Source of the DNA: Bacteroidales bacterium
GTDB taxonomy: Bacteria > Bacteroidota > Bacteroidia > Bacteroidales > P3
DNA length: 63,415 nucleotides
Assembly (NCBI GenBank): GCA_017613375.1
Contig: JAGADZ010000006.1
Location: forward strand, 1-63,415
Direction of reading: 5' to 3'
Shown here: positions 3,999-31,795 of the stretch, one piece after another
Layout of the letters: the number at the start of each line of letters is the position of its first letter
Position numbering within the stretch: position 1 is the first letter of the stretch
Translations under genes and position numbers: made by a program
Notes under the pieces: generated by a model
Seen by the model: the letters and a program-made list of their open reading frames with translations, nothing else
What the model was told of the DNA's origin: nothing
Databases searched by the model: none

Positions 3999-6900
3999 TT
4001 ATTTGAAAGCATTCTCACTCAAGCCTTTGCCGCTCAGTGCGAGATCTTTCATATACGAAGGCACGTCGTGGCCTAAGTATTTCTCCACATAGAGTTTGGC
4101 GAGGTATTGGCCGAGCATGAAACCATGTCCACGCAGACCTGTCAGCAGACCCACCTCGGGATCGACAATGTAGCGAGGTTCTGTGTAGCGTCCTGCCCAT
4201 ACGGCGAGGATGCTGACTTCTCTCAGGTTGGGAATCCATTCTGCGAAGACTTCGCTGACAATCTCAAGGAACTCTTTGCTGTTGTATTTGATGTTCTGGC
4301 GGGTCTCGTAGGCATCAGTATCGGGGCTTGCACATCCGATGATCTGACCGGTATGGGCGAACTGCTGGCCGTAGACGGCACTGAAGCCTTTATAGTGTCG
4401 ACGGTCGATAATCATGTCAAGGGCATCGCCGTTAACACCCATAAGAGGAAGTCTGCGGGTGATGAAAGCCTGATGCTTGACAGGATACAGGCCTGTGTCT
4501 ATTCCCAACATATCGGTGAAACGTTCGGCACCCCAACCCATGCTGTTGACGAAATGTTCGCAGTCGTACTCTACGTATTTGCCTTCGTGTGTACGAACCA
4601 AAGCCAAGGTCCGGTTGCCATTACGCTGAACATGGAGAAGTTCGCAGTCCTCATATACGCGTCCGCCGAGCGAGCAACCGATACCGCGGATGTAATCGAT
4701 GACGCGGCCTGGAGTGGCTTGCCAGCAGTCGCGTGTCATCAGGGCGTGGCTATAGGTCGTCTTGCTGTCGTCCCATAGCGGTGATATCTCTTTCTTGAAA
4801 TCCTTACGGTCAACCATATAGGCATCGCTCCAGGCACGCGATGCGTCAAGAGCCTTGTAAGTGGCTTCGTCGTGGACGAGGTTTACATAGCGTGTGGGCT
4901 TATAGTTGATATTGTGGACTTTCTGGATTGATTTGAATATCTCGTGACTGTGTTGTGCGATGTCGGCGATATCGGGGTTGGAGAATGCGGGACGGCCGCC
5001 ACCGATATTTCTCCATGAAGCGCCGCGGCTCCAGTTCACAAGCACAGGTTTGAATCCTGCCTCACTGAAATAGCGGAATAATCCGCTGCCTGCTATGCCG
5101 CCTCCTGCAATGAGCACTCGCACCTGTTCACGGCTGACATCGTTGTTCTTCGGGAATACGAAGACCTCCTTGCGGCCTTCGGTATAGATGTCCCCGACGG
5201 TCACTTGGTTGCTGAGTGGTGCACGCGGTGTCGCGTCGCCTGTGACCTCGATGCCGTGAGCTCTCAGCACCTGACGGGCTCTCGCGATACAGCGTTTGCC
5301 GCGGCAGGGACCCATACCCATGCGGGTTATGTGTTTCAACTCGTCGACCGAGATGTATTTGCGGTCGCCGACGACATCTATCAGTTGCTGTTCGCTGATA
5401 TCCTCGCAGTGGCAGATGAATGTCTCGCCAGTCTGGTCGGACGAGCTGCATTTGTCACTCATGGACAGTGTTTCAGGGTATCTCTCTTTTGCTATAAAAC
5501 CCTTAATGTCGGTCATGGCACCGTCAATCTTCGCCACCTTAACCCTCGCCACATTGGTCTTGTTCTCTTTCTTAAGGATTTTTTCTATGACACCCTCTCC
5601 GATTTTACGTCCGTTATTGTCGACAAGGTAAACTTCCTTGCCTTCGTCGATGTCATATTCTATCGGCAGGAAGCACCATTCTTTCTGAAGGTTGTATCCG
5701 AAGATTGCCAGTCCTGGGCAGTGGTTCACGCACTCCATGCAGCCTATACATTTGTTGTAATCCACTGTCGGCGTGCTTGCCGTGGTCGGCTTGCTGATGG
5801 CTCCCTGTGGACAGCTGAAAGTACATGGGTTGCAGGCAAAGCCATACAGGCAGTCTATCTGCACAAAGGGTTTGGCGTTCATCCTCTCTGATGTCGGCAA
5901 ATTGGGCTTTTCAAGTAGTCTTACAGGGTGTTGCTGGGAATCAATATATTGGCGTGAGATGTCAAGATATTCGTCGTAATTGAAGCGGATAGCCATCTCC
6001 TGGGCTATCTCGTAAGCAGCCTGACGGCCACGGAGAACGGCACTGGTGCCTTCACCTATGCGAACAGCGTCACCGACACCATAAACATGGTGACCATACA
6101 GTTCCTTGCCTTTTGTCAGGAGTTGGTTATCGGGCACAAGACCTGTACAGATATTGATGATGTCGATATCTTCAATCACCTGCTCAGTCCCTGGGATGAC
6201 CTTGAAATTCTCACATTTGGCAATGACGGCACCGACAACGCCTGTGCGGTCTTCATTGGGAATTGCACGAACCAGTGTGTAACCGGTCATTATGGGAATG
6301 CCAAGGCGACGCACACGGTTTGCCTGCACGGGGAAGCCTCCCTCACGGGGCATGGCCTCGATGATGGCTTTGATGGTGGCTCCGGCCTGCATGCCCTGAT
6401 AGGACGTCAGGTAGCCGATATTGCCGGCACCGACAGTCAGCACCTTTTTACCGAGGAGTGTATGTTCCTGGTTCATCATCTTCTGGAACACTGCAGCGGT
6501 GTATACGCCTGGTACGTCGTCATTCTCGAAAGCCGGCATGAACGGAACGGCACCAGTTGCGACAACGAGATGCTGGGCGTCGATATAAGCCATATCTCCG
6601 GTGACGATGTTCTTTATCGCCAGACGCGGACCTTCGAGGATGTCCCATACAGTGTAGTTCAGTAGAATTCCTTCCTGATTGTCGCCGGCAAGAGTCTTCG
6701 CAATGTCGAAACCACGCATTCCTCCGTATTTCTTTTCTTTCTCGAAGAAGAAGAATTGATGGGTCTGCATATTGAACTGTCCACCGATGCGGGCGTTGTT
6801 GTCTATAACCAAATTGTCTATCCCGAAAGCATTGAGTTGCTCCCTGCAGGCCAGACCTGCCGGACCGGCACCGACTATGGCGACCTGGGTCTTGTATATC

Positions 6901-7238
6901 TTCACTTCGTCGGGTCTCTTCAGTTTTTTTATGTCTGCAAGATTCTGCTCGCTGTTGTCAAGTCTGCGAACCTCTTTCACGCCATCGACAGGGGTGATAC
7001 ATATTCTACGCACCTGACCGTCGACAAGCATCTCGCAAGCACCACATTTGCCTATGCCGCATTCCAGTGAACGGTTACGGCCGCTAAGAGAATGGCTGTG
7101 AACAGGATATCCAGCCTCATGCAATGCCTTGGCAATGGTGTAGCCTTTACGGCCCTGAACTTTGTGGCCTTCATAGTCAAATTCCACCACCTCGCTCTGA
7201 GGGATGTCCAAAATGGGATGTTTCTCAATTCTATACAT
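3999..7238 (-). CDS. Multidomain FAD/NAD(P)- and Fe-S-dependent oxidoreductase, a fusion of 2Fe-2S + Pyr_redox + 4Fe-4S + BFD-like 2Fe-2S + DAO-family dehydrogenase modules
   Basis: 1079 aa. N-terminus has ECGIGKCGACEMLVDG (SoxA/HcnA-like 2Fe-2S). VAIVGAGPAGLA and VLTVGAGNIGY are two Rossmann dinucleotide sites. CIGCMECVNHCP is a 4Fe-4S motif. CHCEDISEQQL...GMGPCRGKRC is a BFD-like motif. VLIAGGGIAGSG begins a roughly 380-aa DAO (SoxB/HcnC/OoxB-like) domain. Confidence 0.8.
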   Translation of the reverse strand: MYRIEKHPILDIPQSEVVEFDYEGHKVQGRKGYTIAKALHEAGYPVHSHSLSGRNRSLECGIGKCGACEMLVDGQVRRICITPVDGVKEVRRLDNSEQNLADIKKLKRPDEVKIYKTQVAIVGAGPAGLACREQLNAFGIDNLVIDNNARIGGQFNMQTHQFFFFEKEKKYGGMRGFDIAKTLAGDNQEGILLNYTVWDILEGPRLAIKNIVTGDMAYIDAQHLVVATGAVPFMPAFENDDVPGVYTAAVFQKMMNQEHTLLGKKVLTVGAGNIGYLTSYQGMQAGATIKAIIEAMPREGGFPVQANRVRRLGIPIMTGYTLVRAIPNEDRTGVVGAVIAKCENFKVIPGTEQVIEDIDIINICTGLVPDNQLLTKGKELYGHHVYGVGDAVRIGEGTSAVLRGRQAAYEIAQEMAIRFNYDEYLDISRQYIDSQQHPVRLLEKPNLPTSERMNAKPFVQIDCLYGFACNPCTFSCPQGAISKPTTASTPTVDYNKCIGCMECVNHCPGLAIFGYNLQKEWCFLPIEYDIDEGKEVYLVDNNGRKIGEGVIEKILKKENKTNVARVKVAKIDGAMTDIKGFIAKERYPETLSMSDKCSSSDQTGETFICHCEDISEQQLIDVVGDRKYISVDELKHITRMGMGPCRGKRCIARARQVLRAHGIEVTGDATPRAPLSNQVTVGDIYTEGRKEVFVFPKNNDVSREQVRVLIAGGGIAGSGLFRYFSEAGFKPVLVNWSRGASWRNIGGGRPAFSNPDIADIAQHSHEIFKSIQKVHNINYKPTRYVNLVHDEATYKALDASRAWSDAYMVDRKDFKKEISPLWDDSKTTYSHALMTRDCWQATPGRVIDYIRGIGCSLGGRVYEDCELLHVQRNGNRTLALVRTHEGKYVEYDCEHFVNSMGWGAERFTDMLGIDTGLYPVKHQAFITRRLPLMGVNGDALDMIIDRRHYKGFSAVYGQQFAHTGQIIGCASPDTDAYETRQNIKYNSKEFLEIVSEVFAEWIPNLREVSILAVWAGRYTEPRYIVDPEVGLLTGLRGHGFMLGQYLAKLYVEKYLGHDVPSYMKDLALSGKGLSENAFK

Positions 7239-7444: not shown

Positions 7445-8491
7445 ATGAAAAAAGCGTCAATAAATCTTATCCTTATCGCAGCCGTGGTGACTTTCATGGC
7501 TTCCTGCAGTAGTCCGTCGGCTCCTGCACCCAAAGACAATCATTACACCATCTCAGGAAAAGTCCCTGACAGAGTCGATGCCGAATGGATGTACCTCTAT
7601 AATATCGACAGGGAAAACCAGGTTGCGTTTGATTCAGCCAAAATCATTAACGGAGAATTCTGTTTGGAGGGCACAGCACCTGATACTGTGCTTCTCGCCG
7701 TGTTGCACCCCGGTGCTCTCGATGATTACCCTGCTGTGGGGTGGAATGTTATTGTCGAACCAGGCTATATCGTGGCTGATGATGCCGATGCCTTTGCCAG
7801 CGGCACGCCTCTCAATGACGGTCTCCGTAGTTGGATGTTGCAGATAGCCAGATTGTTCAAGGAGGGCAATCAAGATGAAAAGGCCATTCTCACCGCTTTC
7901 TTTAAAGAGCACTGGAATGAGCATTCGTCTGATTTTGTAGGAGCCTTTGTGCTTGTTGATGCTTGGATGTATATGGATTTCAACTATGTAGATTCTCTCG
8001 TTTCACAAATTCCGGAAGATATTCGCAATATACAGCTTATCAGGCAGAACCTTATAGAACCTGTCGCATCGACACGTGCTTCGCAACCGGGCAACTCTTT
8101 CAAAGATATCGCTCTCATCACTCTCGACGGTGCCGAGACTCATCTGTCCGACTATGTTGGCAAGGGTGATTATGTCCTTGTCGATTTCTGGGCAAGTTGG
8201 TGCGGCCCCTGCAGGGAATCCATTCCCGAATTGCAGGCCGCCATTCAAAAACATCCCAAGGTCAAAGTCCTCGGTGTTGCTATACGTGACGATGCCAATG
8301 ATACCAGACAGGCTATCAAGAATCTGAAAATCACTTGGCCTGTAGTGAGCGATCCTGCAATCAAAAGTGGAGAAATATACGGTTTCTCAGCGATTCCATT
8401 TATGATGCTTTTCGGTCCTGACGGTAAAATAATTGCCCGCAATATTTTTGCCGAGGAGCTCGACAGGACTCTCACCGAGAAAGTCAAATGA
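7445..8491 (+). CDS. TlpA-family thiol:disulfide oxidoreductase lipoprotein (DUF4369-like N-domain + thioredoxin fold)
   Basis: Lipobox FMASC. The redox motif DFWASWCGPCR lies in the C-terminal roughly 140 aa. Confidence 0.85.
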   Translation: MKKASINLILIAAVVTFMASCSSPSAPAPKDNHYTISGKVPDRVDAEWMYLYNIDRENQVAFDSAKIINGEFCLEGTAPDTVLLAVLHPGALDDYPAVGWNVIVEPGYIVADDADAFASGTPLNDGLRSWMLQIARLFKEGNQDEKAILTAFFKEHWNEHSSDFVGAFVLVDAWMYMDFNYVDSLVSQIPEDIRNIQLIRQNLIEPVASTRASQPGNSFKDIALITLDGAETHLSDYVGKGDYVLVDFWASWCGPCRESIPELQAAIQKHPKVKVLGVAIRDDANDTRQAIKNLKITWPVVSDPAIKSGEIYGFSAIPFMMLFGPDGKIIARNIFAEELDRTLTEKVK

Positions 8492-8500
8492 TGATAAAAA

Positions 8501-8530
8501 AAAGCCGCCCCATATAAACAGGGCGGCTTT
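8501..8530. terminator. Bidirectional hairpin terminator
   Basis: AAAGCCGCCC-catataaaca-GGGCGGCTTT between convergent genes. It is the only clear terminator downstream of the fab-etf-acd block. Confidence 0.75.
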
Positions 8531-8558
8531 CCATTATGAAAAAACAATCTTATTTTTC

Positions 8559-10196
8559 TTATTGCAACATGGCTATGTGACGGCTGACCTCGCCGATGCT
8601 CTCCTTGACGAAGTAGCGGCAGGAGTTCAGATAACGTGCGTCACGTAGACTGTCAAGTAGCAACAGGTATCCCATGATTATGTAGCTCAGCACCTCTGTC
8701 AATGCACGTGTCGTATGCTCGAAACGCTCAGATGTGGTGCCTTCCGATGCTGCCATCTCGTAGAGTTTCTTGTATTCTTCGGTGGCTTTCCGGAGGGTCT
8801 CCATGTATTTCTGCATCTCTGCATTGGGAGTGTTGGCGAGGGCTTCGGCCACACGGGTGTCGTAGCTCTCTATCTGTTTGAGATAAGCCCCGCTGGCGAT
8901 ACCTTTCATGGCGGCTACGACTTGCAACTGGCTGGTGCCTTCATAGATGCTCAGGATTCTGGCATCGCGATACAGGCGTTCGCAGGCATACTCTTTCATG
9001 AATCCGCTTCCTCCATGTACCTGGATACAGTCGTATGCACAACGGTTGGCGAATTCACTGGCATTGAGTTTCACAAGGGGTGTCAGGATATCGGCAACGC
9101 GTGAGGCGCCTTTTGAACTTGTAGAGAGGTCTACGTAGCGTGCTGTCTCGTACATAAGACTGCGAGCACCGTCGGTGCGTGAACGCATCTGGTAAAGAAG
9201 GTCTTGGACGGCGACAAACTGGTTGATGGCGTGGCCGAACTGTTCACGTGATGCAGCGTAGGCTTCAGCTTCGCGGCAGGCGGCTTCGCACAGTCCGATG
9301 GACTGGGCTCCAACACCAAGACGGGCACCGTTCATAAGAGACATGACATATTTTATCAGTCCCAGACGCCGTTCGCCGACAATCTGGCAGGGGGCGTTGG
9401 TGAACTGTAATTCTGCTGTCGGAGAGCCTTTTATACCCATTTTGTTCTCTATACGACGGACAATCATGCCGCCGTCGGCCTTGTCGAAGACAAAGTAGGA
9501 GAGACCGCGGCCGTCATTGGTGCCTTCTTCACTGCGTGCCAATACAAGGTGCAGATCGGCGTCGCCATTGGTGATGAAACGTTTTACGCCGTTCAGACGC
9601 CAGCATTTGTTTGCCTCGTCGTAGGTGGCTTTCAGGCGTACCGATTGCAGGTCGCTGCCGGCATCGGGCTCCGTGAGGTCCATGGAGCAGGTGGCTCCCT
9701 GATAGATTCTCGGAAGATATTTGTTTTTTAGCTCTTCGTTTGCAAATTGCTGAATAGTGTCGGCACAGTCCTGAAGACCCCAAATTGTGGCGAAGCCAAC
9801 GTCGGCACGTGCAATTATTTCCGCAGCCATTACGGCAGCCACACGCGGGAAATTCAGACCGTTGTATTGGCGTTCCAGAGTCATGCCGTAGAGTCCCGAC
9901 TGTATCAGTGCGTCAAGGTTCTTGCGTGTGCCGGGAGCGTAATGTACGCGTCCCTCTTCAAGTTTCGGGCCTACATGGTCTACCTCTTCGGCATTTGGAG
10001 CTATCACATCGCCTGCAATCTGGCCTAACAGGTTCATCACCATGTCGTACTGATTCACGGCTTCCTCTGCGGAGGCAGGGGCTTCGGGATGGTTGCCGGC
10101 TTCGGCGTAATTCTTCTCTTTTACTGCTACCACTTGCTCCATTTCGGGATGATGGAGGTAGAAAGATAAGTTCTCGTTATCGGTATAAAAATTCAT
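8559..10196 (-). CDS. Acyl-CoA dehydrogenase family protein (long, 545 aa)
   Basis: ACAD-like segments LTEPDAGSDL, RFITNGD and RILSIYEGTSQLQ, plus a C-terminal extension of about 100 aa. Confidence 0.85.
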   Translation of the reverse strand: MNFYTDNENLSFYLHHPEMEQVVAVKEKNYAEAGNHPEAPASAEEAVNQYDMVMNLLGQIAGDVIAPNAEEVDHVGPKLEEGRVHYAPGTRKNLDALIQSGLYGMTLERQYNGLNFPRVAAVMAAEIIARADVGFATIWGLQDCADTIQQFANEELKNKYLPRIYQGATCSMDLTEPDAGSDLQSVRLKATYDEANKCWRLNGVKRFITNGDADLHLVLARSEEGTNDGRGLSYFVFDKADGGMIVRRIENKMGIKGSPTAELQFTNAPCQIVGERRLGLIKYVMSLMNGARLGVGAQSIGLCEAACREAEAYAASREQFGHAINQFVAVQDLLYQMRSRTDGARSLMYETARYVDLSTSSKGASRVADILTPLVKLNASEFANRCAYDCIQVHGGSGFMKEYACERLYRDARILSIYEGTSQLQVVAAMKGIASGAYLKQIESYDTRVAEALANTPNAEMQKYMETLRKATEEYKKLYEMAASEGTTSERFEHTTRALTEVLSYIIMGYLLLLDSLRDARYLNSCRYFVKESIGEVSRHIAMLQ

Positions 10197-10261
10197 AATT
10201 GTCGTTGCTATAACCTCACGGTCGTTTCAGGATTTCGTCCCATGTCGCCGTGAGTATTAAT

Positions 10262-11290
10262 TTATTTCAAATTGTTTTTGTAGCAGGCCATAAACTGCGG
10301 TATCACTGTCATTACGTCACCAATGATTGTGTAGTCGGCAATGGCGTTGATAGGAGCCTCGGGGTCGGTGTTGATAGAAATTATCTTGGCACTCTGCTCC
10401 ATGCCGGCTCTGTGCTGCACGGCACCGCTGATTCCGCAGGCAATATAGAGCTTCGGACGTACTGTCACACCCGTCTGGCCTATCTGGCGTTCGCCTTCTG
10501 CAAAGCCTGCATCCACGGCGGCACGTGTAGCTCCTACGCTGCCTCCTATGAGATGTGCAAGTTGGTGGAGTATCTCGAAATTCTCTTTGCTGCCCATGCC
10601 GTAGCCGCCGGCAACGATTATCTGTGCTCCCTTGATGTCGATTTTCTGCTCTTCGATTTCTCTGCTGAGAATTTCCACAGCCTTGTCGGCAGTGTCTATT
10701 GTGGCGTCAAGTTCCACGGGAATAATGGACCCTTTGTAATTGGCATCCAGTATTTCTTTTTTCATTACGCCTTCGCGCACGGTGGCCATCTGGGGACGTG
10801 TCTCGGGACATACGATGGTGGCTATTATGTTGCCGCCGAAAGCGGGGCGCATCTGCAAAAGGATATTGTCATAGTTTTTCTTGTTCTTCATGTCCTCGTG
10901 GGAGCCAATCTCCAGAGAGGTACAGTCTGCCGTAAGGCCACAACGCAGGAACGATGCGATGCGTGGTGCCAGGTCGCGTCCGACTGACGAAGCACCGAAA
11001 AGGACGATATCGGGTTCCTGCTTCTGGATGAGCTTGGAAAGCACATCGAAGTGAGGCAGTGTGCGATAGGGTGAAAGACGTTTGTCGTCGGCAAGGAACA
11101 CATCGTCTACTCCGTAGGGGTATAGCGACTCTGCTGCTTCGCGTACATTGTAGCCAAGCACGGCGGCTTGTAGGCGTACACCCAAGCGGCTTGCCAACTG
11201 GCGACCCTTGGTGCAGAGCTCCAAACTAATGTCGGCAATCTTGTTCTGCTCCGACAATTCACAGTATACTAATACGTTATTTTTTGTCAT
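10262..11290 (-). CDS. etfA: Electron transfer flavoprotein subunit alpha (FixB-type)
   Basis: 342 aa. GLTADCTSLEIG segment, and a C-terminal FAD-binding region IVAGGYGMGS...PKLYIACGISGAVQH. Confidence 0.9.
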   Translation of the reverse strand: MTKNNVLVYCELSEQNKIADISLELCTKGRQLASRLGVRLQAAVLGYNVREAAESLYPYGVDDVFLADDKRLSPYRTLPHFDVLSKLIQKQEPDIVLFGASSVGRDLAPRIASFLRCGLTADCTSLEIGSHEDMKNKKNYDNILLQMRPAFGGNIIATIVCPETRPQMATVREGVMKKEILDANYKGSIIPVELDATIDTADKAVEILSREIEEQKIDIKGAQIIVAGGYGMGSKENFEILHQLAHLIGGSVGATRAAVDAGFAEGERQIGQTGVTVRPKLYIACGISGAVQHRAGMEQSAKIISINTDPEAPINAIADYTIIGDVMTVIPQFMACYKNNLK

Positions 11291-11304
11291 ACTTACGAAA
11301 TCAA

Positions 11305-11424
11305 GTTTCAGAATTCAAATTTCAATATTTGGAATTACCAATCCAGAGATATTATTTCAAAATTCGATATTTAAAAATAAAAATCATAGATTTAATTTCA
11401 AAATTCAAAGTTCGAAATTCAAAA
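11305..11424. repeat. AT-rich short-period quasi-palindromic repeat block (GAATTC/AATTCAAA words) filling the etfB-etfA spacer
   Basis: Contains tttcagaattcaaatttcaa ... tttcaaaattcgat ... tttcaaaattcaaagttcgaaattcaaaatt. It shares a 12-mer and an 11-mer with 38199..38267 and a 13-mer with 24955..24987. Confidence 0.7.
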
Positions 11425-12225
11425 TTACAAAATGTGTTCCTTTATCAACGTTGCGGTCAGTTCGTTTAGAGCCTCCTCGGTGGGCTCCATAACTACAGAC
11501 TCCTTATGCGCCAGCACCACATTCTCTATTTTTTTGACTTTTGTCGGAGAACCTTTAAGTCCCAGACGCTCCATATCGGCATCTATGCCGTCGGCAGTAA
11601 TCATACGCACTTCATCTTTGGCCTGTCTGAGCAGTCTGTGGGCGTTGGGGAAACGGCAGTCTGCCCCGGCAGAGGTTACTGTCACCAATACGGGTAGCTG
11701 TGCCTTCACACATTCTGTTCCTCGTTCCAGACGACGGCGAATCGTGATTGCCTTGGCGTCGATATCAAGAAGCTCTTCGGCGTAGGTGATCTGAGGTATA
11801 TCCAGCTTTTCAGCTACCTGTGGTCCCACCTGTGCCGTGTCACCGTCAATAGCCTGACGACCTCCAAAGATAACGTCGACTTTTCCCAGTTGTTTGATGG
11901 CTTGCGACAGTGCATAGGAAGTGGCAAGAGTGTCAGCCCCTGCAAAACGGGCGTCACTGAGTACAAAACCATCGTCGGCTCCGCGTGATTTAGCATCTTT
12001 GATTATCTCTGCGGCTCTCGGAGGTCCCATCGTCACCACTGTTATTGTCGCTTCTGGCATGGCGTCTTTTACTCTCAGTGCCATCTCAAGGGCTTTAAGG
12101 TCCTCGGGATTGAACACTGTTGGCAACGCCGCACGGTTCACCGTGCCGTCGGCATTCATGGCGTCGGCACCGACGTTGTGGGTGTCAGGCACCTGCTTTG
12201 CCAATACTACTATATTAAAAGCCAT
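11425..12225 (-). CDS. etfB: Electron transfer flavoprotein subunit beta (FixA-type)
   Basis: 266 aa beginning MAFNIVVLAKQVPDT, with NPEDLKALEMAL, typical of EtfB. Confidence 0.9.
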   Translation of the reverse strand: MAFNIVVLAKQVPDTHNVGADAMNADGTVNRAALPTVFNPEDLKALEMALRVKDAMPEATITVVTMGPPRAAEIIKDAKSRGADDGFVLSDARFAGADTLATSYALSQAIKQLGKVDVIFGGRQAIDGDTAQVGPQVAEKLDIPQITYAEELLDIDAKAITIRRRLERGTECVKAQLPVLVTVTSAGADCRFPNAHRLLRQAKDEVRMITADGIDADMERLGLKGSPTKVKKIENVVLAHKESVVMEPTEEALNELTATLIKEHIL

Positions 12226-12273
12226 ATCTGTTTTCGATTTTCTGTTTCGTGGAATTGTTGTCAGTAAATTGCG

Positions 12274-12525
12274 TCAAGCTTTTTTCACATATTCGATGAT
12301 ATCGCCTACGGTCTTTATCTCTTCGGCAGCTTCCTCGGGAATTGAGATGTCGAATTTCTGCTCGATAGACATGATAAGTTCCACGCTGTCAAGCGAGTCG
12401 GCGCCAAGGTCGTTGACCAGGCTCTTCTCGGGGGTGATGTCTGCTGACGATATGCCCAGTTTCTCTTCTATTATTGCGCAAATTTCACTTTCTAACTGTT
12501 CCGGTGTTAATTCTTTTACGTTCAT
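12274..12525 (-). CDS. Acyl carrier protein (divergent, probably a second ACP)
   Basis: 83 aa with the phosphopantetheine site [12 protein letters not shown]. Compared with the housekeeping AcpP as I recall it, it has an N-terminal extension of about 9 aa. Confidence 0.85.
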
Positions 12526-12569
12526 ATTGTGTGTTGTTTTTGTTTCATTGAATTGTTAATAATTATTTG

Positions 12570-13319
12570 TTAGTTGATGGCAAGACCGCCGTCGCAGCTT
12601 ATCACCTGTCCTGTTACATAGGAGGCGAGGTCTGAAGCCAAAAACAGCGATACATGTGCCACGTCGGTGTCATGACCGCCTCTGCGAAGAGGGATCTTGG
12701 TCATCCAGTCTTTACGCACATCTTCGGGGAGCTGCTGTGTCATAGGGGTCTCTATGAATCCAGGAGCAACGGCGTTGCAACGGATATTTCTCGAACCAAG
12801 CTCTTTGGCTATGGAACGGGTGAAGCCAATGATGCCCGCCTTGGAAGCAGAATAGTTGCATTGGCCGGCATTGCCGTTAAGACCGACGATAGAGCTGATA
12901 TTGATTATGGAACCTTGACGCTGCTTCATCATCATAGGAGCGAAAGCCTTGGTGTAGTTGAATACAGAGCGGAGGTTTACATCCATTACGAGATTCCAGT
13001 CTTCCACGCTCATACGCAGTATCAGTTGGTCTTTGGTGATACCGGCATTGTTGACAAGGATGTCAAGTCTTCCATAGTTGTCGGCAACCCATTTTGCGAC
13101 TTCCATGGCTTGTTCGTTGTCGGCGGCATTCGAGGCAAGGAAATCGGCTCTGACTCCTTTGGCACGGAGTTCGGCAAGCAGCGATTCGCTGTTCTCGTTT
13201 TCTTTCAGGTCGGTGAAGATAATGTCGGCACCTTCTTCGGCAAACAGCAGTGCATGGCTGCGACCTATTCCGCGTGACGCTCCAGTAATCAGTGCTATTT
13301 TTTTATCCAATAGTTTCAT
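12570..13319 (-). CDS. fabG: 3-oxoacyl-ACP reductase (SDR family, FabG-like)
   Basis: TGASRGIG cofactor motif, NNAG, and the catalytic YSASKAG. Confidence 0.85.
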   Translation of the reverse strand: MKLLDKKIALITGASRGIGRSHALLFAEEGADIIFTDLKENENSESLLAELRAKGVRADFLASNAADNEQAMEVAKWVADNYGRLDILVNNAGITKDQLILRMSVEDWNLVMDVNLRSVFNYTKAFAPMMMKQRQGSIINISSIVGLNGNAGQCNYSASKAGIIGFTRSIAKELGSRNIRCNAVAPGFIETPMTQQLPEDVRKDWMTKIPLRRGGHDTDVAHVSLFLASDLASYVTGQVISCDGGLAIN

Positions 13320-13415
13320 AATAATATATTTTTTGTTTTTTTTAATGGAAAAAGTTAATAGTCAAGCCAATCCAACGTCGTCCGATTGACTTAACTATTA
13401 TAACTGTAGTAATAG

Positions 13416-13832
13416 TTATTTATTGTCTACCAATGTAAAAATCAGACTGCCCTTTGCGCAGAGCTTGTCTTCAACTCTCGCTTCGGCATCGACAAAGAAC
13501 GTCAAGCCTCTTTTCGCGGTGACTTTGCCACGGATGGTGATTGTGTCTCCGGGACGGACTTGGTTTTTGAAACGCACCTTGTCCAATCCGCTGTAAAAAG
13601 GTGTACGGCCTGGCAGGTCGTCTTTTATCAAGATACAGCAGTTCTGTCCCATGATTTCACAGAGTATCACTCCGGGAACTACAGGATAACCAGGGAAATG
13701 ACCCTGCAGGAAATATTCGTCACCACGTACATGGTAGTGTCCCACAGCAATGCCGTCTTCCAAGGTTACATCGTCTACAAGCAGCATGGGCTCGCGATGC
13801 GGCAGAAAGGTCTTTATTTCATCTCTTTCCAT
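13416..13832 (-). CDS. fabZ: 3-hydroxyacyl-ACP dehydratase (FabZ-like hotdog fold)
   Basis: LPHREPMLLVD and HFPGYPVVPGVILCEIMGQ, carrying the catalytic His and Glu context. Confidence 0.8.
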   Translation of the reverse strand: MERDEIKTFLPHREPMLLVDDVTLEDGIAVGHYHVRGDEYFLQGHFPGYPVVPGVILCEIMGQNCCILIKDDLPGRTPFYSGLDKVRFKNQVRPGDTITIRGKVTAKRGLTFFVDAEARVEDKLCAKGSLIFTLVDNK

Positions 13833-13871
13833 ATTATATTATTTTATTGTTTTCAATATATATAATTACCC

Positions 13872-15107
13872 TCAGATTTTTCTAAGAGCGACACATGCAT
13901 TTTGACCACCGAAACCAAATGAATTGCTTATGGTCATCTCGGCTCCGAAATCACGTGCGGTGTGGGGAGTGTAGTCCAAATCGCAGTCTGGATCGGGTTG
14001 GTCAAGATGAATTGTCGGTGCCACTTTACCATCACGGAGTGTCAAGGCACAGATAATCATCTCTATGGCTCCCGTGGCTCCCAACATATGGCCCAACATT
14101 GATTTGGTACTGCTGATTACAGCTTGACGTGCCGCGGCCTCGCCCATGGCCTGTTTTATTGCCAGGGTCTCGGTTTTGTCATTCAGCGGTGTGCCAGTAC
14201 CGTGTGCATTGATATACAGTCTCTCGCCTTTGAAACCTGCTTCTTCCAAAGCTAAGCGTATGGCGTTAGTGGCACATTTGGCATCTGCTCTCGGTGCGGT
14301 ATAGTGGAAAGCGTCGCATGTGTTGCCATAACCACATACTTCTGCATAGATATGTGCACCGCGTTTACGTGCCAAATCGTAGTCCTCGAGAATCATAACT
14401 CCAGACCCTTCACCCATTACGAAACCTTTTCTTCTAAGGTCGAACGGTAGTGATGCGGCCATTGGGTCTTCGCTGGTTGACAATGCTTTACTGTTTGCAA
14501 AACCGGCTATTGCTATGTCGCAGATGGCAGCTTCAGCACCTCCTGTTATCATGGCGTCGGCACGGCCTTCGCGAATCATTCTATAGGCTTCGCCAATCGA
14601 ATGTGTTCCTGTGGCACAAGCCGTTACAACTGGCAGGTTTGGACCTTCGGCATGAAAGACTATGGCCACGTTGCCGGAAGCGATATTGGCAATCATCTCG
14701 GGGATGAAAAGGGGAGACACGCGGCGAGGACCTGCTTCAAGCAGTGATGTATGCTCGCGGCAGAATGTCTGGATGCCACCTGTACCGGAACCGATAGCAC
14801 AGCCAAATCGGCTGGAGTCAATATCTTTCCCCACTTCCAGACCGCTGTCTTTCATCGCCTGTGTGGCTGCGGCGATGGCATAAAGGGCATAGCGGTCATT
14901 GTGACGTACCATGGCTTTGTCTATGCCAAAATCTTCAGGATTGAAGTCCATCACTTCTGCAGCGACTTTGACGGGGAGTTTCTCGGCATCAAGTTTTTGT
15001 AATTTCTTGATGGCGCAAGTGCCTTTCAGCAGTTCGCTCCAGAAGGTCTCTATATTGTTTCCAAGTGGGGTGACGCATCCCATACCTGTGATTACTACTC
15101 GTTTCAT
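13872..15107 (-). CDS. fabF: Beta-ketoacyl-ACP synthase II
   Basis: 411 aa with the Cys-His-His triad context VVTACATGTHSIG, NAHGTGTPLND and KSMLGHMLGATG. Confidence 0.9.
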   Translation of the reverse strand: MKRVVITGMGCVTPLGNNIETFWSELLKGTCAIKKLQKLDAEKLPVKVAAEVMDFNPEDFGIDKAMVRHNDRYALYAIAAATQAMKDSGLEVGKDIDSSRFGCAIGSGTGGIQTFCREHTSLLEAGPRRVSPLFIPEMIANIASGNVAIVFHAEGPNLPVVTACATGTHSIGEAYRMIREGRADAMITGGAEAAICDIAIAGFANSKALSTSEDPMAASLPFDLRRKGFVMGEGSGVMILEDYDLARKRGAHIYAEVCGYGNTCDAFHYTAPRADAKCATNAIRLALEEAGFKGERLYINAHGTGTPLNDKTETLAIKQAMGEAAARQAVISSTKSMLGHMLGATGAIEMIICALTLRDGKVAPTIHLDQPDPDCDLDYTPHTARDFGAEMTISNSFGFGGQNACVALRKI

Positions 15108-15156
15108 TTCTATTATCTATTTGTTTCTCAATGATTATCTAAAAAATACCTCTGTT

Positions 15157-16113
15157 TTATATTTGCGACCATTTGATGAGGGCTGCTCCTGTGACAAAGC
15201 CGCCTCCGAAAGCACTGAGCATCAGGGTGGCGCCGTCGTTCAAACGGCCTTCCTTGTGCAGTTCGTCAAGCAATATTGGAATACTTGCTGACGATGTGTT
15301 GCCATAATGCTGCATGTTTGTCGGGAATTTCTCTTTGGGTTGTCCCAGATGTTCGCGGATGTTCTCAATGATTCTAAGATTGGCTTGGTGAAGCAGGAAG
15401 AGATCGATGTCCTCTGACGTCACTTTGCATTGTTTCATCAGAGTGTCGATATCCTTTATTGAGGCACTGACGGCCAGACGGAAGACCTCACGTCCAATCA
15501 TGACAAGAGGCGTGGTGCGTTCTTCTACGCGGTCGTAGGGTGTACGCTCCATCGAACGTTTGTAATACAGCACATCGGTATGTGTGTCAGCGGTCACTCT
15601 TATTCCCATCAGGTTATTGCCGGTTGTAACAACCACGGCTCCAGCACCGTCTCCAAACAGCACAGAGGTCTCTCTCTCATGCCAGTTGCAGAAACGTGTA
15701 GGTTCTTCTGCGCAGATTATCAGGATGTTCTTTGCTCTTCCGGTCTTCAGGAATGACTCGGCGATATCCAGAGCGTAAATGAATCCTGCACATGCTCCAT
15801 TCAAGTCAAAGCAAGGACATTTGCAACCTAAACGGTTCAAAAGAATACTGCTAAGTGACGGACTGACATAGCTGTTGGCTACATTTGAGCATATTACATA
15901 GTCTATTTTTGACCCTCTGATGTTCGCAGACTCTAATGCAGACATGGCAGCATCATAGGCCAAGTCGCGCAATGTTCCGGTACTTAACATTCTACGTGTT
16001 TCAATACCCGTTCTTGTTCTAATCCAGCTGTCGCTGGTGTCAAGGAATCCGGCAAGCATGTCATTGGTGACTATTTTGTCCGGAAGTGCACTTCCTGTTC
16101 CAATAATTCTCAT
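15157..16113 (-). CDS. fabH: Beta-ketoacyl-ACP synthase III
   Basis: 318 aa with LNGACAGFIYAL (Cys), LLHQANLRI (His) and YGNTSSASIP (Asn). Confidence 0.9.
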   Translation of the reverse strand: MRIIGTGSALPDKIVTNDMLAGFLDTSDSWIRTRTGIETRRMLSTGTLRDLAYDAAMSALESANIRGSKIDYVICSNVANSYVSPSLSSILLNRLGCKCPCFDLNGACAGFIYALDIAESFLKTGRAKNILIICAEEPTRFCNWHERETSVLFGDGAGAVVVTTGNNLMGIRVTADTHTDVLYYKRSMERTPYDRVEERTTPLVMIGREVFRLAVSASIKDIDTLMKQCKVTSEDIDLFLLHQANLRIIENIREHLGQPKEKFPTNMQHYGNTSSASIPILLDELHKEGRLNDGATLMLSAFGGGFVTGAALIKWSQI

Positions 16114-16243
16114 ATTAATGTTTCTATTTTAATAAACCTATATGAAGATTTCGTTTTTTTCGGGCTGCAAAGAACGAACAAATAATTAAATAAATTTTGT
16201 TAAAAACGATATTTTACACAATATTTTTGACGAAATGCCGATA

Positions 16244-16276
16244 TTTTGGGTGAAATTTTCACTTTTTGGGTGAAAT
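16244..16276 (+). promoter_or_regulatory. Perfect 13-nt direct repeat TTTTGGGTGAAAT x2 (candidate LytTR operator)
   Basis: Copies at 16244..16256 and 16264..16276, 20 bp start to start. They lie 23-55 nt upstream of the LytTR gene ATG, in the divergent region shared with fabH. Confidence 0.45.
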
Positions 16277-16298
16277 ACATAAAATTTGAATCGTTTTT

Positions 16299-17168
16299 AT
16301 GCAAAAAAGACACAATAATATACCGAAATTTCTTTCCGAAAAAAGGAGTATATGGCTATTTCTTCTTTCCGTTCTTTTCTTTGCCATATTGTTTATTTTG
16401 TTTTACAAGCCTGCCGGTTTTATGCGTACCAGCGAGCTCCTTTCTCCTTGGAATGAATATATCTATACTGCCATTCAGGTTTTTAGTGGCTTTATCATTC
16501 TTCTTGTAAGTCGTATTTCCCTCGCTCATTTTCTACAACGCCATGAAACGGATTTTTCAGGCATTGCTTTGTGGATTGCCTTGGAAATGATTGTCATTAC
16601 ATTGGTATTAAGTGTGATAGCTTCTCTTTTAAACGCCGATGAAGGTCTTGATTTTGTAGAGTTGCTTTGGCGTGTTGCTGTAAATATTATCAAAATTCTT
16701 TTTATTCCCTATGTTATTACTGTTCTGATATTTATGCTTCGAGACCGTCGTCACCAGATAGATACTCTCAGCAAAAGAATTGAGAATATGTCCGGCGGAA
16801 ACGATATGAGTAATGACAACATGAATTTCTACGACCGTGGTGGAAAACTTGTATTCTCCACACGTCGTTCCAACGTGCTTTATATTGAAGCCGCAGACAA
16901 TTACAGCAATATACATTATATTAATGAGGGGAAGGAGGAGACTTTTATCCTTCACAACTCCATGAAGCATCTCGATATATCAGACAATTACCCCAATCTA
17001 CTCCGTTGCCACAAGTCTTATATGGTCAATATTGACAATGTCAAGCTTTTACGCAAGGAAAAAGATGGTCTTCTTCTTGAACTGGCACAAGGAGCACGCT
17101 CAATCCCTGTCTCGCGGACATATAATGAAAAGGTGGTCCATTTTTTCGCCAGTGTCCCGGAGTCTTGA
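16299..17168 (+). CDS. Membrane-anchored LytTR-family DNA-binding protein
   Basis: The N-terminal roughly 150 aa has about 4 TM helices. The C-terminal LytTR domain reads VLYIEAADNYSNIHY...LLRCHKSYMVNIDNV...IPVSRTY. No receiver domain is present. Confidence 0.8.
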   Translation: MQKRHNNIPKFLSEKRSIWLFLLSVLFFAILFILFYKPAGFMRTSELLSPWNEYIYTAIQVFSGFIILLVSRISLAHFLQRHETDFSGIALWIALEMIVITLVLSVIASLLNADEGLDFVELLWRVAVNIIKILFIPYVITVLIFMLRDRRHQIDTLSKRIENMSGGNDMSNDNMNFYDRGGKLVFSTRRSNVLYIEAADNYSNIHYINEGKEETFILHNSMKHLDISDNYPNLLRCHKSYMVNIDNVKLLRKEKDGLLLELAQGARSIPVSRTYNEKVVHFFASVPES

Positions 17169-20133: not shown

Positions 20134-20892
20134 ATGATACTTTGGTTTTCAGGATGTGGCAACAGCCGCTATGTGGCAGAAGAGCTGGCACGACTGACCG
20201 ACGACAGGCTGGCGTTCATCGACCCCAACGACAAAAGTCCTCGCATAGAGCTGTCGCCCGACGAGGCATTGGGTTTTGTCTGTCCTGTCTATGCGTGGGC
20301 AGTGCCGCGTCTGGTAGATGATTTTGTACGGCGAATGACGTTGACCGGCAGGCCCTCTTACTGCTATCTTGCCTGCACCTGCGGCGACAATGTCGGCCGA
20401 ACACCGGAACGTTTCTCAAAGACACTCTCAAAACAGGGGCTGACGCTCAATGCCGCCTTTGGATTTGTCATGCCAGAGACCTACATCAACCTCAGGGGGT
20501 TCAATCTGGACAGCCCGGAAAACGAACAACGCAAGATTGCCGCAGTCAAGGAACGCCTGCCTCGTGTTGCCGAGCAGATAATGCAACGGAAAGAAACGGT
20601 TGATGTTGTTCGTGGAACAGCACCGTGGATTACAAGTTATTTGATCAATCCGCTGTTTTATGGCTTGCTGATTACCGACAGGAAATTCCATGTCAACGAC
20701 GACTGTATCCATTGCGGTATATGTGAGAAATCATGCCCTTTGGGCAATATTGCCATAAAAGAAGGGCTTCCAGTCTGGCAAGGGAACTGCACAAACTGTA
20801 TGTCGTGCTACCACCACTGCCCAAAAAACGCCATCCATTTCGGCAAAGCCACGCTTGGCAAGGGGCAGTACTTCTTCAGGACTCACGATTGA
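20134..20892 (+). CDS. EFR1-family ferredoxin (flavodoxin-like domain + 2x[4Fe-4S])
   Basis: N-terminus MILWFSGCGNSRYVAEEL. C-terminus CIHCGICEKSCP and CTNCMSCYHHCP. Confidence 0.8.
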   Translation: MILWFSGCGNSRYVAEELARLTDDRLAFIDPNDKSPRIELSPDEALGFVCPVYAWAVPRLVDDFVRRMTLTGRPSYCYLACTCGDNVGRTPERFSKTLSKQGLTLNAAFGFVMPETYINLRGFNLDSPENEQRKIAAVKERLPRVAEQIMQRKETVDVVRGTAPWITSYLINPLFYGLLITDRKFHVNDDCIHCGICEKSCPLGNIAIKEGLPVWQGNCTNCMSCYHHCPKNAIHFGKATLGKGQYFFRTHD

Positions 20893-29551: not shown

Positions 29552-31138
29552 ATGTCAAAGTTGCTTTTGCTTGGCGATGAGGCTATTGCCCAAGCCTTTA
29601 TAGATGCCGGCGGTAGTGCCATAAACAGCTACCCTGGAACTCCCTCGACGCAGATTACAGAATATGTGATTAAATCAAAAGAAGCCAAGGAAAAAGGCGT
29701 TGTTGCCAACTGGTGCGCCAACGAGAAAACAGCCCTTGAGGCTTCTATCGGTGTGGCTTATGCAGGCAAGCGTGCCATGACTTGTATGAAGCACGTTGGT
29801 CTGAATGTCTGTGGAGACCCTTTCATGAATGCCGCCATCATCGGCACCAAAGGCGTCATCATCGTTGTTGCTGACGACCCCAGCATGTTCTCCTCTCAGG
29901 ACGAACAGGACAGCCGCTACTACGGTCACTGGGCTATGATTCCCATGCTTGAGCCCAGCAACCAGCAAGAGGCCTACGATATGGTCTTCTTTGGCTATGA
30001 ACTCTCAGAGAAACTCGGCACCCCGATTCTCTATCGCATCCCCACCCGTCTTGCCCACAGCCGCGCAGGTGTGGAACGCCGTCCTGCTCTGCCGCAGAAT
30101 CCGCTGACAAGTCCTAGCGACCCGAAGAGTTTCGTGCTGCTGCCTGTCAACGCCAAGCGTCTGTATCGCGACCTTATAGACAAACAGCCTGCTTTCACAA
30201 AATCAAGCGAGGAGAGCGGATTCAACAAATACTATGAAGGTACCGACAAGAGCCGTGGTATCATCACCACTGGCATCGCCTTCAACTACCTGCAGGAGAA
30301 TTTCCCCGGCGGCAAATGCCCCTATCCTGTTGTAAAAATTACACAGTATCCGTTGCCGTTCAATATGCTTAACAAACTGTATGACGAAGTCGACGAGATA
30401 CTCGTCCTCGAGGATGGCCAGCCATTCGTGGAGGAACATATCAAAGGTTTCCTTGGCAAAGGCAAGCCTGTCCACGGTCGTATCGATGAGACTATCCGTC
30501 GCGATGGCGAGCTGAATGCTGAGAAGGTCGCCAAGGCTCTTGGCCTCACCGTTCCCAACGGCCCTGCTGTACCTGATGTTGTAACCAACCGTCCTCCGGC
30601 ACTCTGCGTGGGATGTCCTCATATCGACAGTTACGAGGCTGTTGTCGAGGTTATGAAGAAATACCCCAACGGACGTGTCTTCGGTGATATTGGATGCTAC
30701 ACCCTCGGATTCAACATGGGTGCCATCAACACCACCGTCTGCATGGGAGCCTCTGTCACCATGGCCAAGGGTGCTTCCGAAATGGGTATCTTCCCCGCAA
30801 TCGGTGTCATCGGCGATGGCACTTTCGGTCACAGCGGCATGACAGGCCTGTTGGATTGTGTCAACGAGAAAGCCAACGTCATCATCATGATTCTCGACAA
30901 CGACATCACTGCTATGACAGGTGGCCAGCCCTCAAGCGCCAATCAGAAGCTTTTCAATATCTGCAAGGGCCTCGGTGTTGACCCGGATCATATCCGCACC
31001 ATCGTGCCTCTGAAGAAAAACCACGACGAATTTGTCAAGATTCTCGAGGAGGAAATCGCTTACAACGGTGTCAGCGTCATTATCCCGCAGCGCGTATGCA
31101 TTGTTGAGAATAAAAAGAGAATTGCAGCAAAGAAATAA
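29552..31138 (+). CDS. iorA: Indolepyruvate:ferredoxin oxidoreductase subunit alpha
   Basis: 528 aa. TPP-enzyme N-terminus GDEAIAQAFIDAG...YPGTPST, a CxGCPH segment and GDGTFGHSG are typical of IorA. Confidence 0.85.
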   Translation: MSKLLLLGDEAIAQAFIDAGGSAINSYPGTPSTQITEYVIKSKEAKEKGVVANWCANEKTALEASIGVAYAGKRAMTCMKHVGLNVCGDPFMNAAIIGTKGVIIVVADDPSMFSSQDEQDSRYYGHWAMIPMLEPSNQQEAYDMVFFGYELSEKLGTPILYRIPTRLAHSRAGVERRPALPQNPLTSPSDPKSFVLLPVNAKRLYRDLIDKQPAFTKSSEESGFNKYYEGTDKSRGIITTGIAFNYLQENFPGGKCPYPVVKITQYPLPFNMLNKLYDEVDEILVLEDGQPFVEEHIKGFLGKGKPVHGRIDETIRRDGELNAEKVAKALGLTVPNGPAVPDVVTNRPPALCVGCPHIDSYEAVVEVMKKYPNGRVFGDIGCYTLGFNMGAINTTVCMGASVTMAKGASEMGIFPAIGVIGDGTFGHSGMTGLLDCVNEKANVIIMILDNDITAMTGGQPSSANQKLFNICKGLGVDPDHIRTIVPLKKNHDEFVKILEEEIAYNGVSVIIPQRVCIVENKKRIAAKK

Positions 31139-31140
31139 AA

Positions 31141-31217
31141 TTAGTGAATCGTGAATAGTGACGAATGAATAGAAAGACGATTTTTTGATATCTCTAATCA
31201 CCAATCACTAATCACTC
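31141..31217. repeat. Imperfect inverted repeat built from GTGAAT(n) heptamer words in the iorA-iorB spacer
   Basis: The left arm is ttagtgaatcgtgaatagtgacgaatgaatag and the right arm is ctaatcaccaatcactaatcactc. Its reverse complement, gagtgattagtgattggtgattag, matches about 15/19 positions of the left arm. Confidence 0.6.
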
Positions 31218-31231
31218 AAAAAAGAATAACA

Positions 31232-31795
31232 ATGAAAAAAGACATCATACTTTGTGGCGTAGGCGGTGACGGTATCGTTTCCGTAGCCAAAATCATAAGC
31301 GACGCAGCCCTTAATTTGGGCCTTAATGTTAAGCAGAGCGAAATCCACGGTATGTCTCAACGCGGCGGTTCTGTATTCAGCCACCTCCGCGTCAGCAGCG
31401 ACCCCATTTTCGCTGACGTCATCCCTGAAGGTAAGGCCGACATCATCCTTAGCTCCGAGCCCATGGAAGCTCTCCGCTATCTGCCTTTCCTCGCTCCCGA
31501 CGGCGTGGTGATTACCAACAGCGACCCCTTTATAAATATCACCAACTATCCCGATATGGAAAAAGTCAATGCTGAGTTGGCTAAGCTGCCGAAATGCGTC
31601 AGCTTTAACGCCAATGCCATTGCCAAGGAACTCAATGCCCGCGGTAATATGGTATTGCTTGGCGCTGCTGCCCCATATCTCGAGATTGCTTTCGAAGAAC
31701 TTGAAAAAGCTATTAAGTCAATCTTCGGTCGTAAAGGCGATGCTGTCGTAGATACAAATATTAAGGCTATCCGTGCCGGTCGCGACGCTAAATAA
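31232..31795 (+). CDS. iorB: Indolepyruvate:ferredoxin oxidoreductase subunit beta
   Basis: 187 aa. ILCGVGGDGIVS and SEIHGMSQRGGSV are typical of the gamma-like IorB subunit. Confidence 0.85.
   Translation: MKKDIILCGVGGDGIVSVAKIISDAALNLGLNVKQSEIHGMSQRGGSVFSHLRVSSDPIFADVIPEGKADIILSSEPMEALRYLPFLAPDGVVITNSDPFINITNYPDMEKVNAELAKLPKCVSFNANAIAKELNARGNMVLLGAAAPYLEIAFEELEKAIKSIFGRKGDAVVDTNIKAIRAGRDAK

Follow-up and report, generated by a model that had tools for sequence, protein, structure and literature searches.

The window analysed here, the 63,415-nt stretch of the Bacteroidales bacterium assembly GCA_017613375.1 (contig JAGADZ010000006.1, positions 1 to 63,415), contains a cluster of eight minus-strand genes at positions 8559-16113, in the order fabH-fabF-fabZ-fabG-acp-etfB-etfA-acad. 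The first five are genes of type II fatty acid synthesis (FASII), and the last three encode the two subunits of an electron transfer flavoprotein (ETF) and an acyl-CoA dehydrogenase (ACAD). Comparison with related genomes gave strong evidence that the fab block and etfBA-acad form one functional unit, and we put the probability that ACAD-EtfAB is the enoyl-thioester reductase of this unit at roughly 0.5. We know of no ETF-dependent ACAD that serves FASII.

A fab-etf-acad cluster conserved in Bacteroidales

The successive spacers between the eight open reading frames (ORFs) are 49, 39, 96, 44, 48, 134 and 65 nt, and the ORF list of the window reproduced exactly the layout, coordinates and gaps given in the first-pass annotation, which had been made from the sequence without database searches. 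NCBIfam and Pfam scans agreed with its family assignment for every one of the eight proteins, and the catalytic motifs it had quoted for FabH, FabF, FabZ, FabG, the acyl carrier protein (ACP) and EtfA are all present in the translations. It had also recognized a single convincing terminator after the last gene. This is an intrinsic-terminator-like hairpin 3′ of acad (8499-8532, minus strand) that has a stem of 15 pairs and a T run and faces a convergent thioredoxin-like gene (7445-8491); no other strong site of this kind was predicted on that strand. Within the operon there are weak hairpins only (13889-13868 and 13464-13449, three G-C pairs each), and no terminator was predicted, including in the 48-nt acp/etfB spacer, where, according to the first-pass annotation, a mapped promoter/terminator pair would speak against its hypothesis.

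Fab block and etfBA-acad were compared in an ACAD-anchored sample of 80 species-level genomes, to which all eight window proteins were mapped and in which about 10 kb was readable on each side; homologue searches used a panel of 116 loci plus the window (117 sequences). fabH and fabF directly adjoin etfB-etfA-acad in 33 of the 80 loci. The remaining 47 loci contain a fab-free etfB-etfA-acad trio, judged where the flank suffices, and the carriers of this unlinked trio include Odoribacter, Paludibacter and metagenome-assembled genomes (MAGs) labelled Rikenellaceae, Muribaculaceae or Prevotellaceae. When a FabH profile was used as an independent anchor, which avoids the ascertainment bias that comes with anchoring on ACAD, etfBA-acad was found beside fab genes in five of six contexts, and the sixth contig stops after fabZ; linkage was therefore present in all five FabH-anchored contexts reaching far enough downstream.

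The linked loci fall into four gene orders. The window and most relatives are of type A, in which a lytTR gene is divergent from fabH-fabF-fabZ-fabG-(acp)-etfB-etfA-acad. In type B (L025, L029-L037, L099 and L100), the order downstream of the divergent lytTR is fabH-fabF-fabZ-etfB-acp-etfA-acad-fabG, and in L100, which is on a 1.17-Mb contig, the junctions acp/etfA (1 nt), etfA/acad (1 nt) and acad/fabG (14 nt) are touching or overlapping, which points to translational coupling. Type C (L097) has acad-etfA-etfB divergent from fabH-fabF-fabZ-fabG. Type D, acp-fabF-fabH-etfB-etfA-acad (L023, 2285-8863; L024, 477-6680), encodes a distinct FabF/FabH subfamily, about 46% (FabF) and 35% (FabH) identical to the window proteins, together with an atypical ACP (DLSADSLD; 41% identity to E. 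coli AcpP). The idea that the type D FabF and FabH are the primary Bacteroidales copies was dropped, since this adjacent ACP is atypical. L022 and L096 lack fabZ, and type D lacks both fabZ and fabG, leaving FabH, FabF, EtfB, EtfA and ACAD as the invariant core of linked loci. Neighbour-joining trees of FabF, FabH, FabG and ACAD were congruent, and the fab-linked ACADs cluster apart from the unlinked ones. Because the linkage survives interleaving rearrangements, involves overlapping frames and is accompanied by co-inheritance, the fab block and etfBA-acad are regarded as one functional unit, and chance adjacency is very unlikely. The gene-neighbourhood comparison that the first-pass annotation had proposed thus came out in favour of stable co-occurrence.

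With NCBIfam equivalog cut-offs as family thresholds for FASII proteins, FabH, FabF, FabG and ACP all scored above cut-off, and their catalytic residues are intact. FabH (15157-16113, 318 aa), the beta-ketoacyl-ACP synthase III or initiating condensing enzyme, scored 342 bits against NF006829 (cut-off 249) and 300.7 bits against TIGR00747 (cut-off 292.1), and contains the motifs NGACAG, HQAN and GNTSSAS with the complete Cys-His-Asn triad. W30 and R147, both invariant in the FabH alignment, are presumably its CoA-primer-binding Trp and Arg. The elongating condensing enzyme FabF (beta-ketoacyl-ACP synthase II; 13872-15107, 411 aa) scored 557.8 bits against TIGR03150 (cut-off 493.75), is 46.6% identical to E. 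coli FabF and retains ACATG, HGTGT and GHMLGATG. The 3-oxoacyl-ACP reductase FabG (12570-13319, 249 aa; TGASRGIG and YSASK motifs) scored 326.7 bits against TIGR01830 (cut-off 297.75) and is the product of the most conserved gene of the cluster, with up to 96% identity in relatives. The stand-alone 3-hydroxyacyl-ACP dehydratase FabZ (13416-13832, 138 aa) was marginally under the cut-off of NF000582 (110.8 versus 113 bits) and under that of TIGR01750 (98.2 versus 155.15), and contains HFPGYPVVPGV with the catalytic His and the Glu of CEIMGQ. Our Pfam scan of FabZ returned FabA and 4HBT domains only; a precomputed Pfam record adds ApeI-like and ApeP-like (aryl-polyene dehydratase) matches, a discrepancy that may reflect Pfam versions.

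The in-operon ACP (12274-12525, 83 aa) has the DSLD motif and scored 97.4 bits against TIGR00517 (cut-off 70.45). Its N-terminal extension, remarked on in the first-pass annotation, is real, but it is lineage-specific, with 83 aa here versus 78-81 aa in other cluster ACPs. This ACP evolves fast (41% identity between the window and L015, versus 74% for their ACADs), and acp is missing from the cluster in L009, L011-L014, L016-L019, L022, L040, L096 and L097. Rfam and tRNA scans gave no match within the cluster. The 134-nt etfB/etfA spacer (11291-11424) is AT-rich with many TTTGAA(T/A)TT repeats and matched neither a terminator nor an Rfam family. Its length is lineage-specific; the spacer is about 20-95 nt in close relatives and 26 nt in L003.

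Control region and divergent LytTR gene

A gene divergent from fabH (16299-17168, plus strand) encodes a 289-aa membrane-anchored LytTR-domain regulator (PF04397) with about four N-terminal hydrophobic helices and the LytTR domain at its C-terminus. Among type A and type B relatives, about 27 loci share this divergent arrangement. The control region between the two genes (16114-16298, minus strand with respect to the operon) contains direct repeats, ATTTCACCCAAAA at 16276-16264 and again at 16256-16244 and ATTTCGTCAAAAA at approximately 16236-16224, at a spacing of 20 nt; the window has no further exact copy of ATTTCACCCAAAA. After the repeats comes a TTTG box resembling the Bacteroidetes -7 element (approximately 16175-16166), and a TTTG-containing box is conserved in related loci, although a strict TAnnTTTG search upstream of fabH found no match. 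A sigma-70 promoter scan was uninformative, as it is for Bacteroidetes in general. In related loci the same position is occupied by two to eight equivalent repeats, for example TTTCGCCCAAAA and TTTCGTCACAAAA, with a spacing of 20-21 nt. Of 23 control regions, 21 have a directly repeated 9-mer spaced at exactly 20 nt, versus 1.65 expected from shuffles.

The classical LytTR operator consists of direct repeats about two helical turns apart. The LytTR regulator therefore probably controls the whole operon through these repeats as a candidate operator; this one upstream control region and one terminator bracket all eight genes. Neither regulator nor operator figured in the first-pass annotation; both are added here. 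To our knowledge no FASII regulator of this kind has been described in Bacteroidota, and the conserved LytTR regulator and operator offer a tractable candidate. In two fab-free loci (L050, 6050-6544; L071, 7515-8006), etfB is immediately preceded, in the same orientation, by an ORF for a soluble LytTR-domain protein (163-164 aa). LytTR and etfBA-acad are thus associated even where the fab block is absent.

ACAD-EtfAB as a candidate enoyl reductase

The products of etfB (small ETF subunit; 11425-12225, 266 aa) and etfA (large ETF subunit; 10262-11290, 342 aa) were compared with proteins of solved structure. The best matches of EtfB were CarD (6FAH), EtfB of 5OL2, 4KPU and 7KOE, and LctB (7QH2), with E-values of 1e-46 to 1e-53, versus 1e-15 or weaker for human ETF-beta (1EFV) and the Paracoccus ETF (1EFP). 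EtfA matched the same bifurcating set (6FAH, 5OL2, 4KPU, 7KOE and 7QH2) at 1e-67 to 1e-86, with CarE (6FAH) and EtfA of 5OL2 at the top (about 1e-85), versus 1e-41 for human ETF-alpha and the non-bifurcating set. EtfB contains AKQVPDT and GRQAIDGDTAQVGPQ, both of which align with CarD and C. difficile EtfB and which we take to be the FAD/NADH-site signature of bifurcating ETFs, replacing the AMP-site sequence of non-bifurcating ones. The Pfam domains of the two subunits are ETF and ETF_alpha. EtfA contains the GLTADCT segment, which the first-pass annotation had regarded as typical of FixB/Bcd-associated (group 2) ETFs, and has no N-terminal ferredoxin domain, its alignment beginning at CarE residue 71. 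By relatedness and motifs, the window ETF is of the bifurcating type (group 2).

The ACAD-family flavoprotein encoded 65 nt downstream of etfA (8559-10196, 545 aa) is composed of three ACAD Pfam domains and a C-terminal PF12186 domain. Its core is closest to the dehydrogenases of bifurcating complexes (the butyryl-CoA dehydrogenases 4L1F, 1BUC and 5OL2_C, and also CarC), and the catalytic Glu is kept in the YEGT motif (IYEGTSQLQ). Full-length matches are 577-611-aa ACADs; the length and C-terminal domain resemble those of such ACADs and of VLCAD-type enzymes and suggest a long-chain substrate range. The closest genome matches are rumen MAGs (up to 90% identity), and an identical protein occurs in metagenome assemblies only. 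Two ACAD indels considered as markers of fab linkage (a deletion of 17-23 aa in a loop, and a shortened C-terminus in the window clade) were rejected, being lineage-specific and not linkage-specific.

Bcd-EtfAB of Clostridia (5OL2, 4KPU/4L1F) resembles the window trio in combining a bifurcating-type EtfAB with an ACAD-family reductase and is among the best structure matches of all three proteins; the proposal made here would also give the two a common chemistry, in which a trans-2-enoyl thioester is reduced at the expense of NADH and ferredoxin may be reduced too. In contrast to Bcd, which has about 380 aa, the window ACAD has 545 aa and PF12186, like dimeric long-chain ACADs. Genes for Bcd neighbour those for thiolase, Hbd and Crt, whereas the window trio lies within a FabH-FabF-FabZ-FabG-ACP operon, and no thiolase, Hbd or Crt domain was found in the window or in annotated contexts. 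Bcd acts on crotonyl-CoA, and the substrate in the Bacteroidales host is presumed to be a FASII intermediate. With its long ACAD, extra domain and absence of thl, hbd and crt, the window system lies outside the Bcd system proper. The caffeyl-CoA reductase CarCDE of Acetobacterium woodii (6FAH), the top match for both EtfB and EtfA, is a precedent for the recruitment of an ACAD and a bifurcating ETF to non-butyrate enoyl-CoA substrates, but it differs in pathway context and in the N-terminal ferredoxin domain of CarE, which the window EtfA does not have. The window proteins are not members of the AcrABC system of Clostridium propionicum, missing the equivalogs NF042970, NF042971 and NF042972 by a wide distance (305.8 versus 600, 208.9 versus 475 and 240.1 versus 640).

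Acceptance of a phosphopantetheine-tethered acyl group on a carrier protein has precedents among ACAD folds in MbtN/FadE14 and in the prolyl-peptidyl carrier protein dehydrogenases RedW and PigA (4IRN). These enzymes are, however, oxidative, belong to secondary metabolism and are not known to have an ETF partner encoded alongside; the window ACAD scored far under their cut-offs (MbtN, 35.3 versus 700; RedW, 138.2 versus 650; PigA, 125.3 versus 500). The canonical enoyl-ACP reductases (ENRs) FabI, FabL and FabV (SDR superfamily) and FabK (FMN TIM-barrel) catalyse the reaction proposed for ACAD-EtfAB, but they belong to unrelated families and consist of one subunit that uses NAD(P)H without conserving energy. 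The unlinked trio of Bacteroidales (L041-L082; Odoribacter, Paludibacter, Rikenellaceae and Muribaculaceae) is close to that of the window (53-57% identity for ACAD, 57-66% for EtfA and 50-60% for EtfB), with identical domain architecture and no group-specific residues, and differs in having no adjacent fab genes and in falling into separate ACAD clades. Aryl-polyene and flexirubin type II polyketide synthases differ from the window cluster, which has a single FabF passing the FabF equivalog and no ketosynthase/chain-length factor (KS/CLF) pair; the FlxB model gave 237.4 bits versus a cut-off of 340, and no adenylating or tailoring genes of such pathways were found near the cluster.

The first-pass annotation had noted that an enoyl reductase and FabD were missing, which held for the window and for all related clusters: searches of the 63-kb window and of the roughly 10 kb flanking each related cluster gave no homologue of FabI, FabK or FabD, the FabK part being a weak negative because its query was an approximate sequence. 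The E. coli FabI query matched FabG genes only (24-33% identity), the E. coli FabD query matched one gene only, in the unlinked locus L028, and the approximate FabK sequence had no match in the 117 sequences. No NMO or enoyl-reductase-type Pfam domain was found in annotated contexts, nor any further fab gene among the other scanned genes of the window.

From these parts the following scheme can be drawn. A single LytTR-controlled operon would encode a complete fatty acid elongation cycle, in which FabH would condense an acyl-CoA primer with malonyl-ACP to begin the chain, FabF would elongate it, FabG would reduce the 3-keto group and FabZ would dehydrate the product to a trans-2-enoyl thioester. 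ACAD, running reductively, would then reduce the enoyl group, presumably ACP-bound and derived from FASII, in place of a FabI, FabK, FabL or FabV enzyme. Electrons would pass from NADH through the bifurcating-type EtfAB to ACAD, as in clostridial Bcd-EtfAB and CarCDE, and if bifurcation occurs, reduced ferredoxin would be gained in each elongation round. FabD, for malonyl transfer, and malonyl-CoA would be supplied by genes elsewhere. The first-pass annotation had suggested that ACAD/ETF takes the enoyl reduction step in a dedicated secondary pathway. The conserved unit, the bifurcating-type ETF, the absence of an ENR or FabD nearby and the lack of a predicted terminator between acp and etfB favour the first part of that proposal; on the second, the hints point both ways (see below). 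More tentatively, and with doubt outweighing confidence, ACAD-EtfAB might constitute a fifth, mechanistically new class of ENR, in which each round of elongation is coupled to flavin-based electron bifurcation. Lipid synthesis in these anaerobes would then return reduced ferredoxin, yielding energy via Rnf-type complexes, and the large redox drop from NADH to the enoyl group would no longer be wasted. By extension, the orphan etfBA-acad trio across Bacteroidales may serve FASII likewise.

Several observations weigh against ACAD-EtfAB as the reductase of the module. At an 85% threshold, 0 alignment positions separate fab-linked from unlinked ACADs (139 of 545 columns are invariant), and thus there is no sign of a switch of substrate from CoA to ACP; either such substrates are already accepted throughout the Bacteroidales ACAD family, or acyl-CoA is the actual substrate. 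The absence of an ENR gene from the cluster is weak evidence alone, because well-known fab clusters such as E. coli fabHDG-acpP-fabF also lack theirs, and an ENR such as FabK, whose gene is common in Bacteroidales, could be encoded elsewhere. Some complexes with a bifurcating-type ETF do not bifurcate, for example the acryloyl-CoA reductase of Clostridium propionicum.

The alternative that survives best, though we consider it unlikely on balance, is that the genes are merely co-regulated: ACAD-EtfAB would act on free acyl- or enoyl-CoA, as the unlinked trio of other Bacteroidales presumably does, and a canonical FabK or FabI encoded elsewhere would reduce enoyl-ACP. In that case ACAD-EtfAB might process exogenous fatty acids or provide saturated acyl-CoA primers for FabH, and the genes would be clustered as one LytTR-controlled lipid-homeostasis regulon. 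The uniformity of fab-linked and unlinked ACADs fits this explanation, as do the wide distribution of the trio without fab genes (47 of 80 loci), the LytTR-domain ORF preceding etfB in the fab-free L050 and L071, and the retention in FabH of W30 and R147, the presumed primer-binding residues. It leaves unexplained, however, why acp should lie between etfB and etfA with overlapping frames and fabG after acad, and why the linkage should persist through four rearrangements with congruent gene trees; moreover, no thioesterase, acyl-CoA ligase, hydratase or thiolase is conserved nearby to feed an acyl-CoA pathway.

Housekeeping FASII genes lying by chance beside an unrelated etfBA-acad trio would account for the FASII-level NCBIfam scores of FabF, FabG, FabH and ACP and for the very conserved AcpP-like acp that is always beside the cluster in a sister lineage, A2. 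Against such a coincidence, which we hold to be improbable, stand at least 33 species-level genomes with four gene orders, interleaved and overlapping genes and congruent phylogenies, and the single control region and single terminator that enclose all eight genes. Least probable is the oxidative use raised in the first-pass annotation, in which ACAD would introduce the 2,3-double bond into a saturated acyl thioester and pass electrons to ETF, giving an unsaturated product or a 2-enoyl fatty acid signal by analogy with the backtracking dehydrogenase FabX of Helicobacter or diffusible signal factor (DSF)-type signals. In its favour, ACADs are normally oxidative, LytTR regulators often govern signalling circuits and FabZ-family enzymes can isomerise in some bacteria. 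Against it, FabZ already makes the trans-2-enoyl intermediate, which would leave a dehydrogenase with nothing to add; L022, L096 and the type D loci lack fabZ; the ETF belongs to the bifurcating, NADH-linked type, and neither an ETF:quinone oxidoreductase nor another electron outlet is conserved nearby; and no thioesterase is present for release of a signal.

Whether the cluster is a second FASII system or the sole one, hints point both ways. Pointing to a second system, the operon's own ACP evolves fast and can be dispensed with, genomes without an in-operon acp must encode another ACP, and FabZ is normally fused to LpxC in Bacteroidota. In favour of a sole system, the enzymes score as bona fide FASII proteins, FabG is extremely conserved, and lineage A2 (L005-L007, L010 and L101-L116) keeps an AcpP-like ACP just across lytTR. 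Lineage A2 is very abundant; its operon has no internal acp, and the solitary ACP gene lies between an NlpC/P60 gene and lytTR (e.g., L007, 3537-3776). This ACP is about 58-60% identical to E. coli AcpP, and one exact sequence occurs on 255 contigs. A search with the L007 ACP for a primary acpP-fabF pair yielded no such candidate: all homologues examined (81-100% identity, 16 contexts) adjoin the cluster, and in these 16 contexts the A2 ACP is never beside another fabF.

Significance and genomic surroundings

The ENR is the pace-setting enzyme of bacterial fatty acid synthesis and an established target of drugs (triclosan, isoniazid and FabI inhibitors), and each new class of ENR has changed the understanding of resistance and target spectrum. 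If ACAD-EtfAB does reduce the enoyl intermediate, it would be the first multi-subunit and potentially energy-conserving ENR. Flavin-based electron bifurcation would then reach from fermentation into anabolism. The cluster is common in uncultured rumen and hindgut Bacteroidales, its carriers all being MAGs or metagenome contigs, with one associated ACP sequence indexed in hundreds of assemblies, and it may influence ruminant membrane-lipid and odd- or branched-chain fatty acid output.

The window comes from the chromosome of a rumen-type, uncultured member of the Bacteroidales, and the cluster is surrounded by ordinary housekeeping genes, among them those for 5S rRNA, ribosomal protein S2, EF-Ts, RpoN and type IX secretion system (T9SS) cargo proteins. 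The 5S rRNA is at 14-125 on the plus strand (RF00001, 77.4 bits), and thus the window begins at the end of an rRNA operon. A 1079-aa fusion of Fer2_4, Pyr_redox_2, 4Fe-4S, BFD-like 2Fe-2S and DAO domains is encoded at 3999-7238 (minus strand) and recurs near etfBA-acad in the window lineage (L001, L004 and L086-L095) and near the unlinked L071 trio; it may be a redox partner, or its position may be plain synteny. At 29552-31795 (plus strand) is a two-subunit 2-oxoacid:ferredoxin oxidoreductase of the indolepyruvate-oxidoreductase type (528 and 187 aa), and in L008, L009 and L011 this same pair immediately adjoins the lytTR of the cluster. Such an enzyme could be a source of acyl-CoA primers and reduced ferredoxin. 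A flavodoxin_5 and 4Fe-4S protein is encoded about 4 kb from the cluster (20134-20892, plus strand), a position kept in the close relatives L001 and L086-L094, and an ApbE flavin-transferase gene lies farther away (49204-50244, minus strand); either could have a part in electron flow through ferredoxin or flavins.

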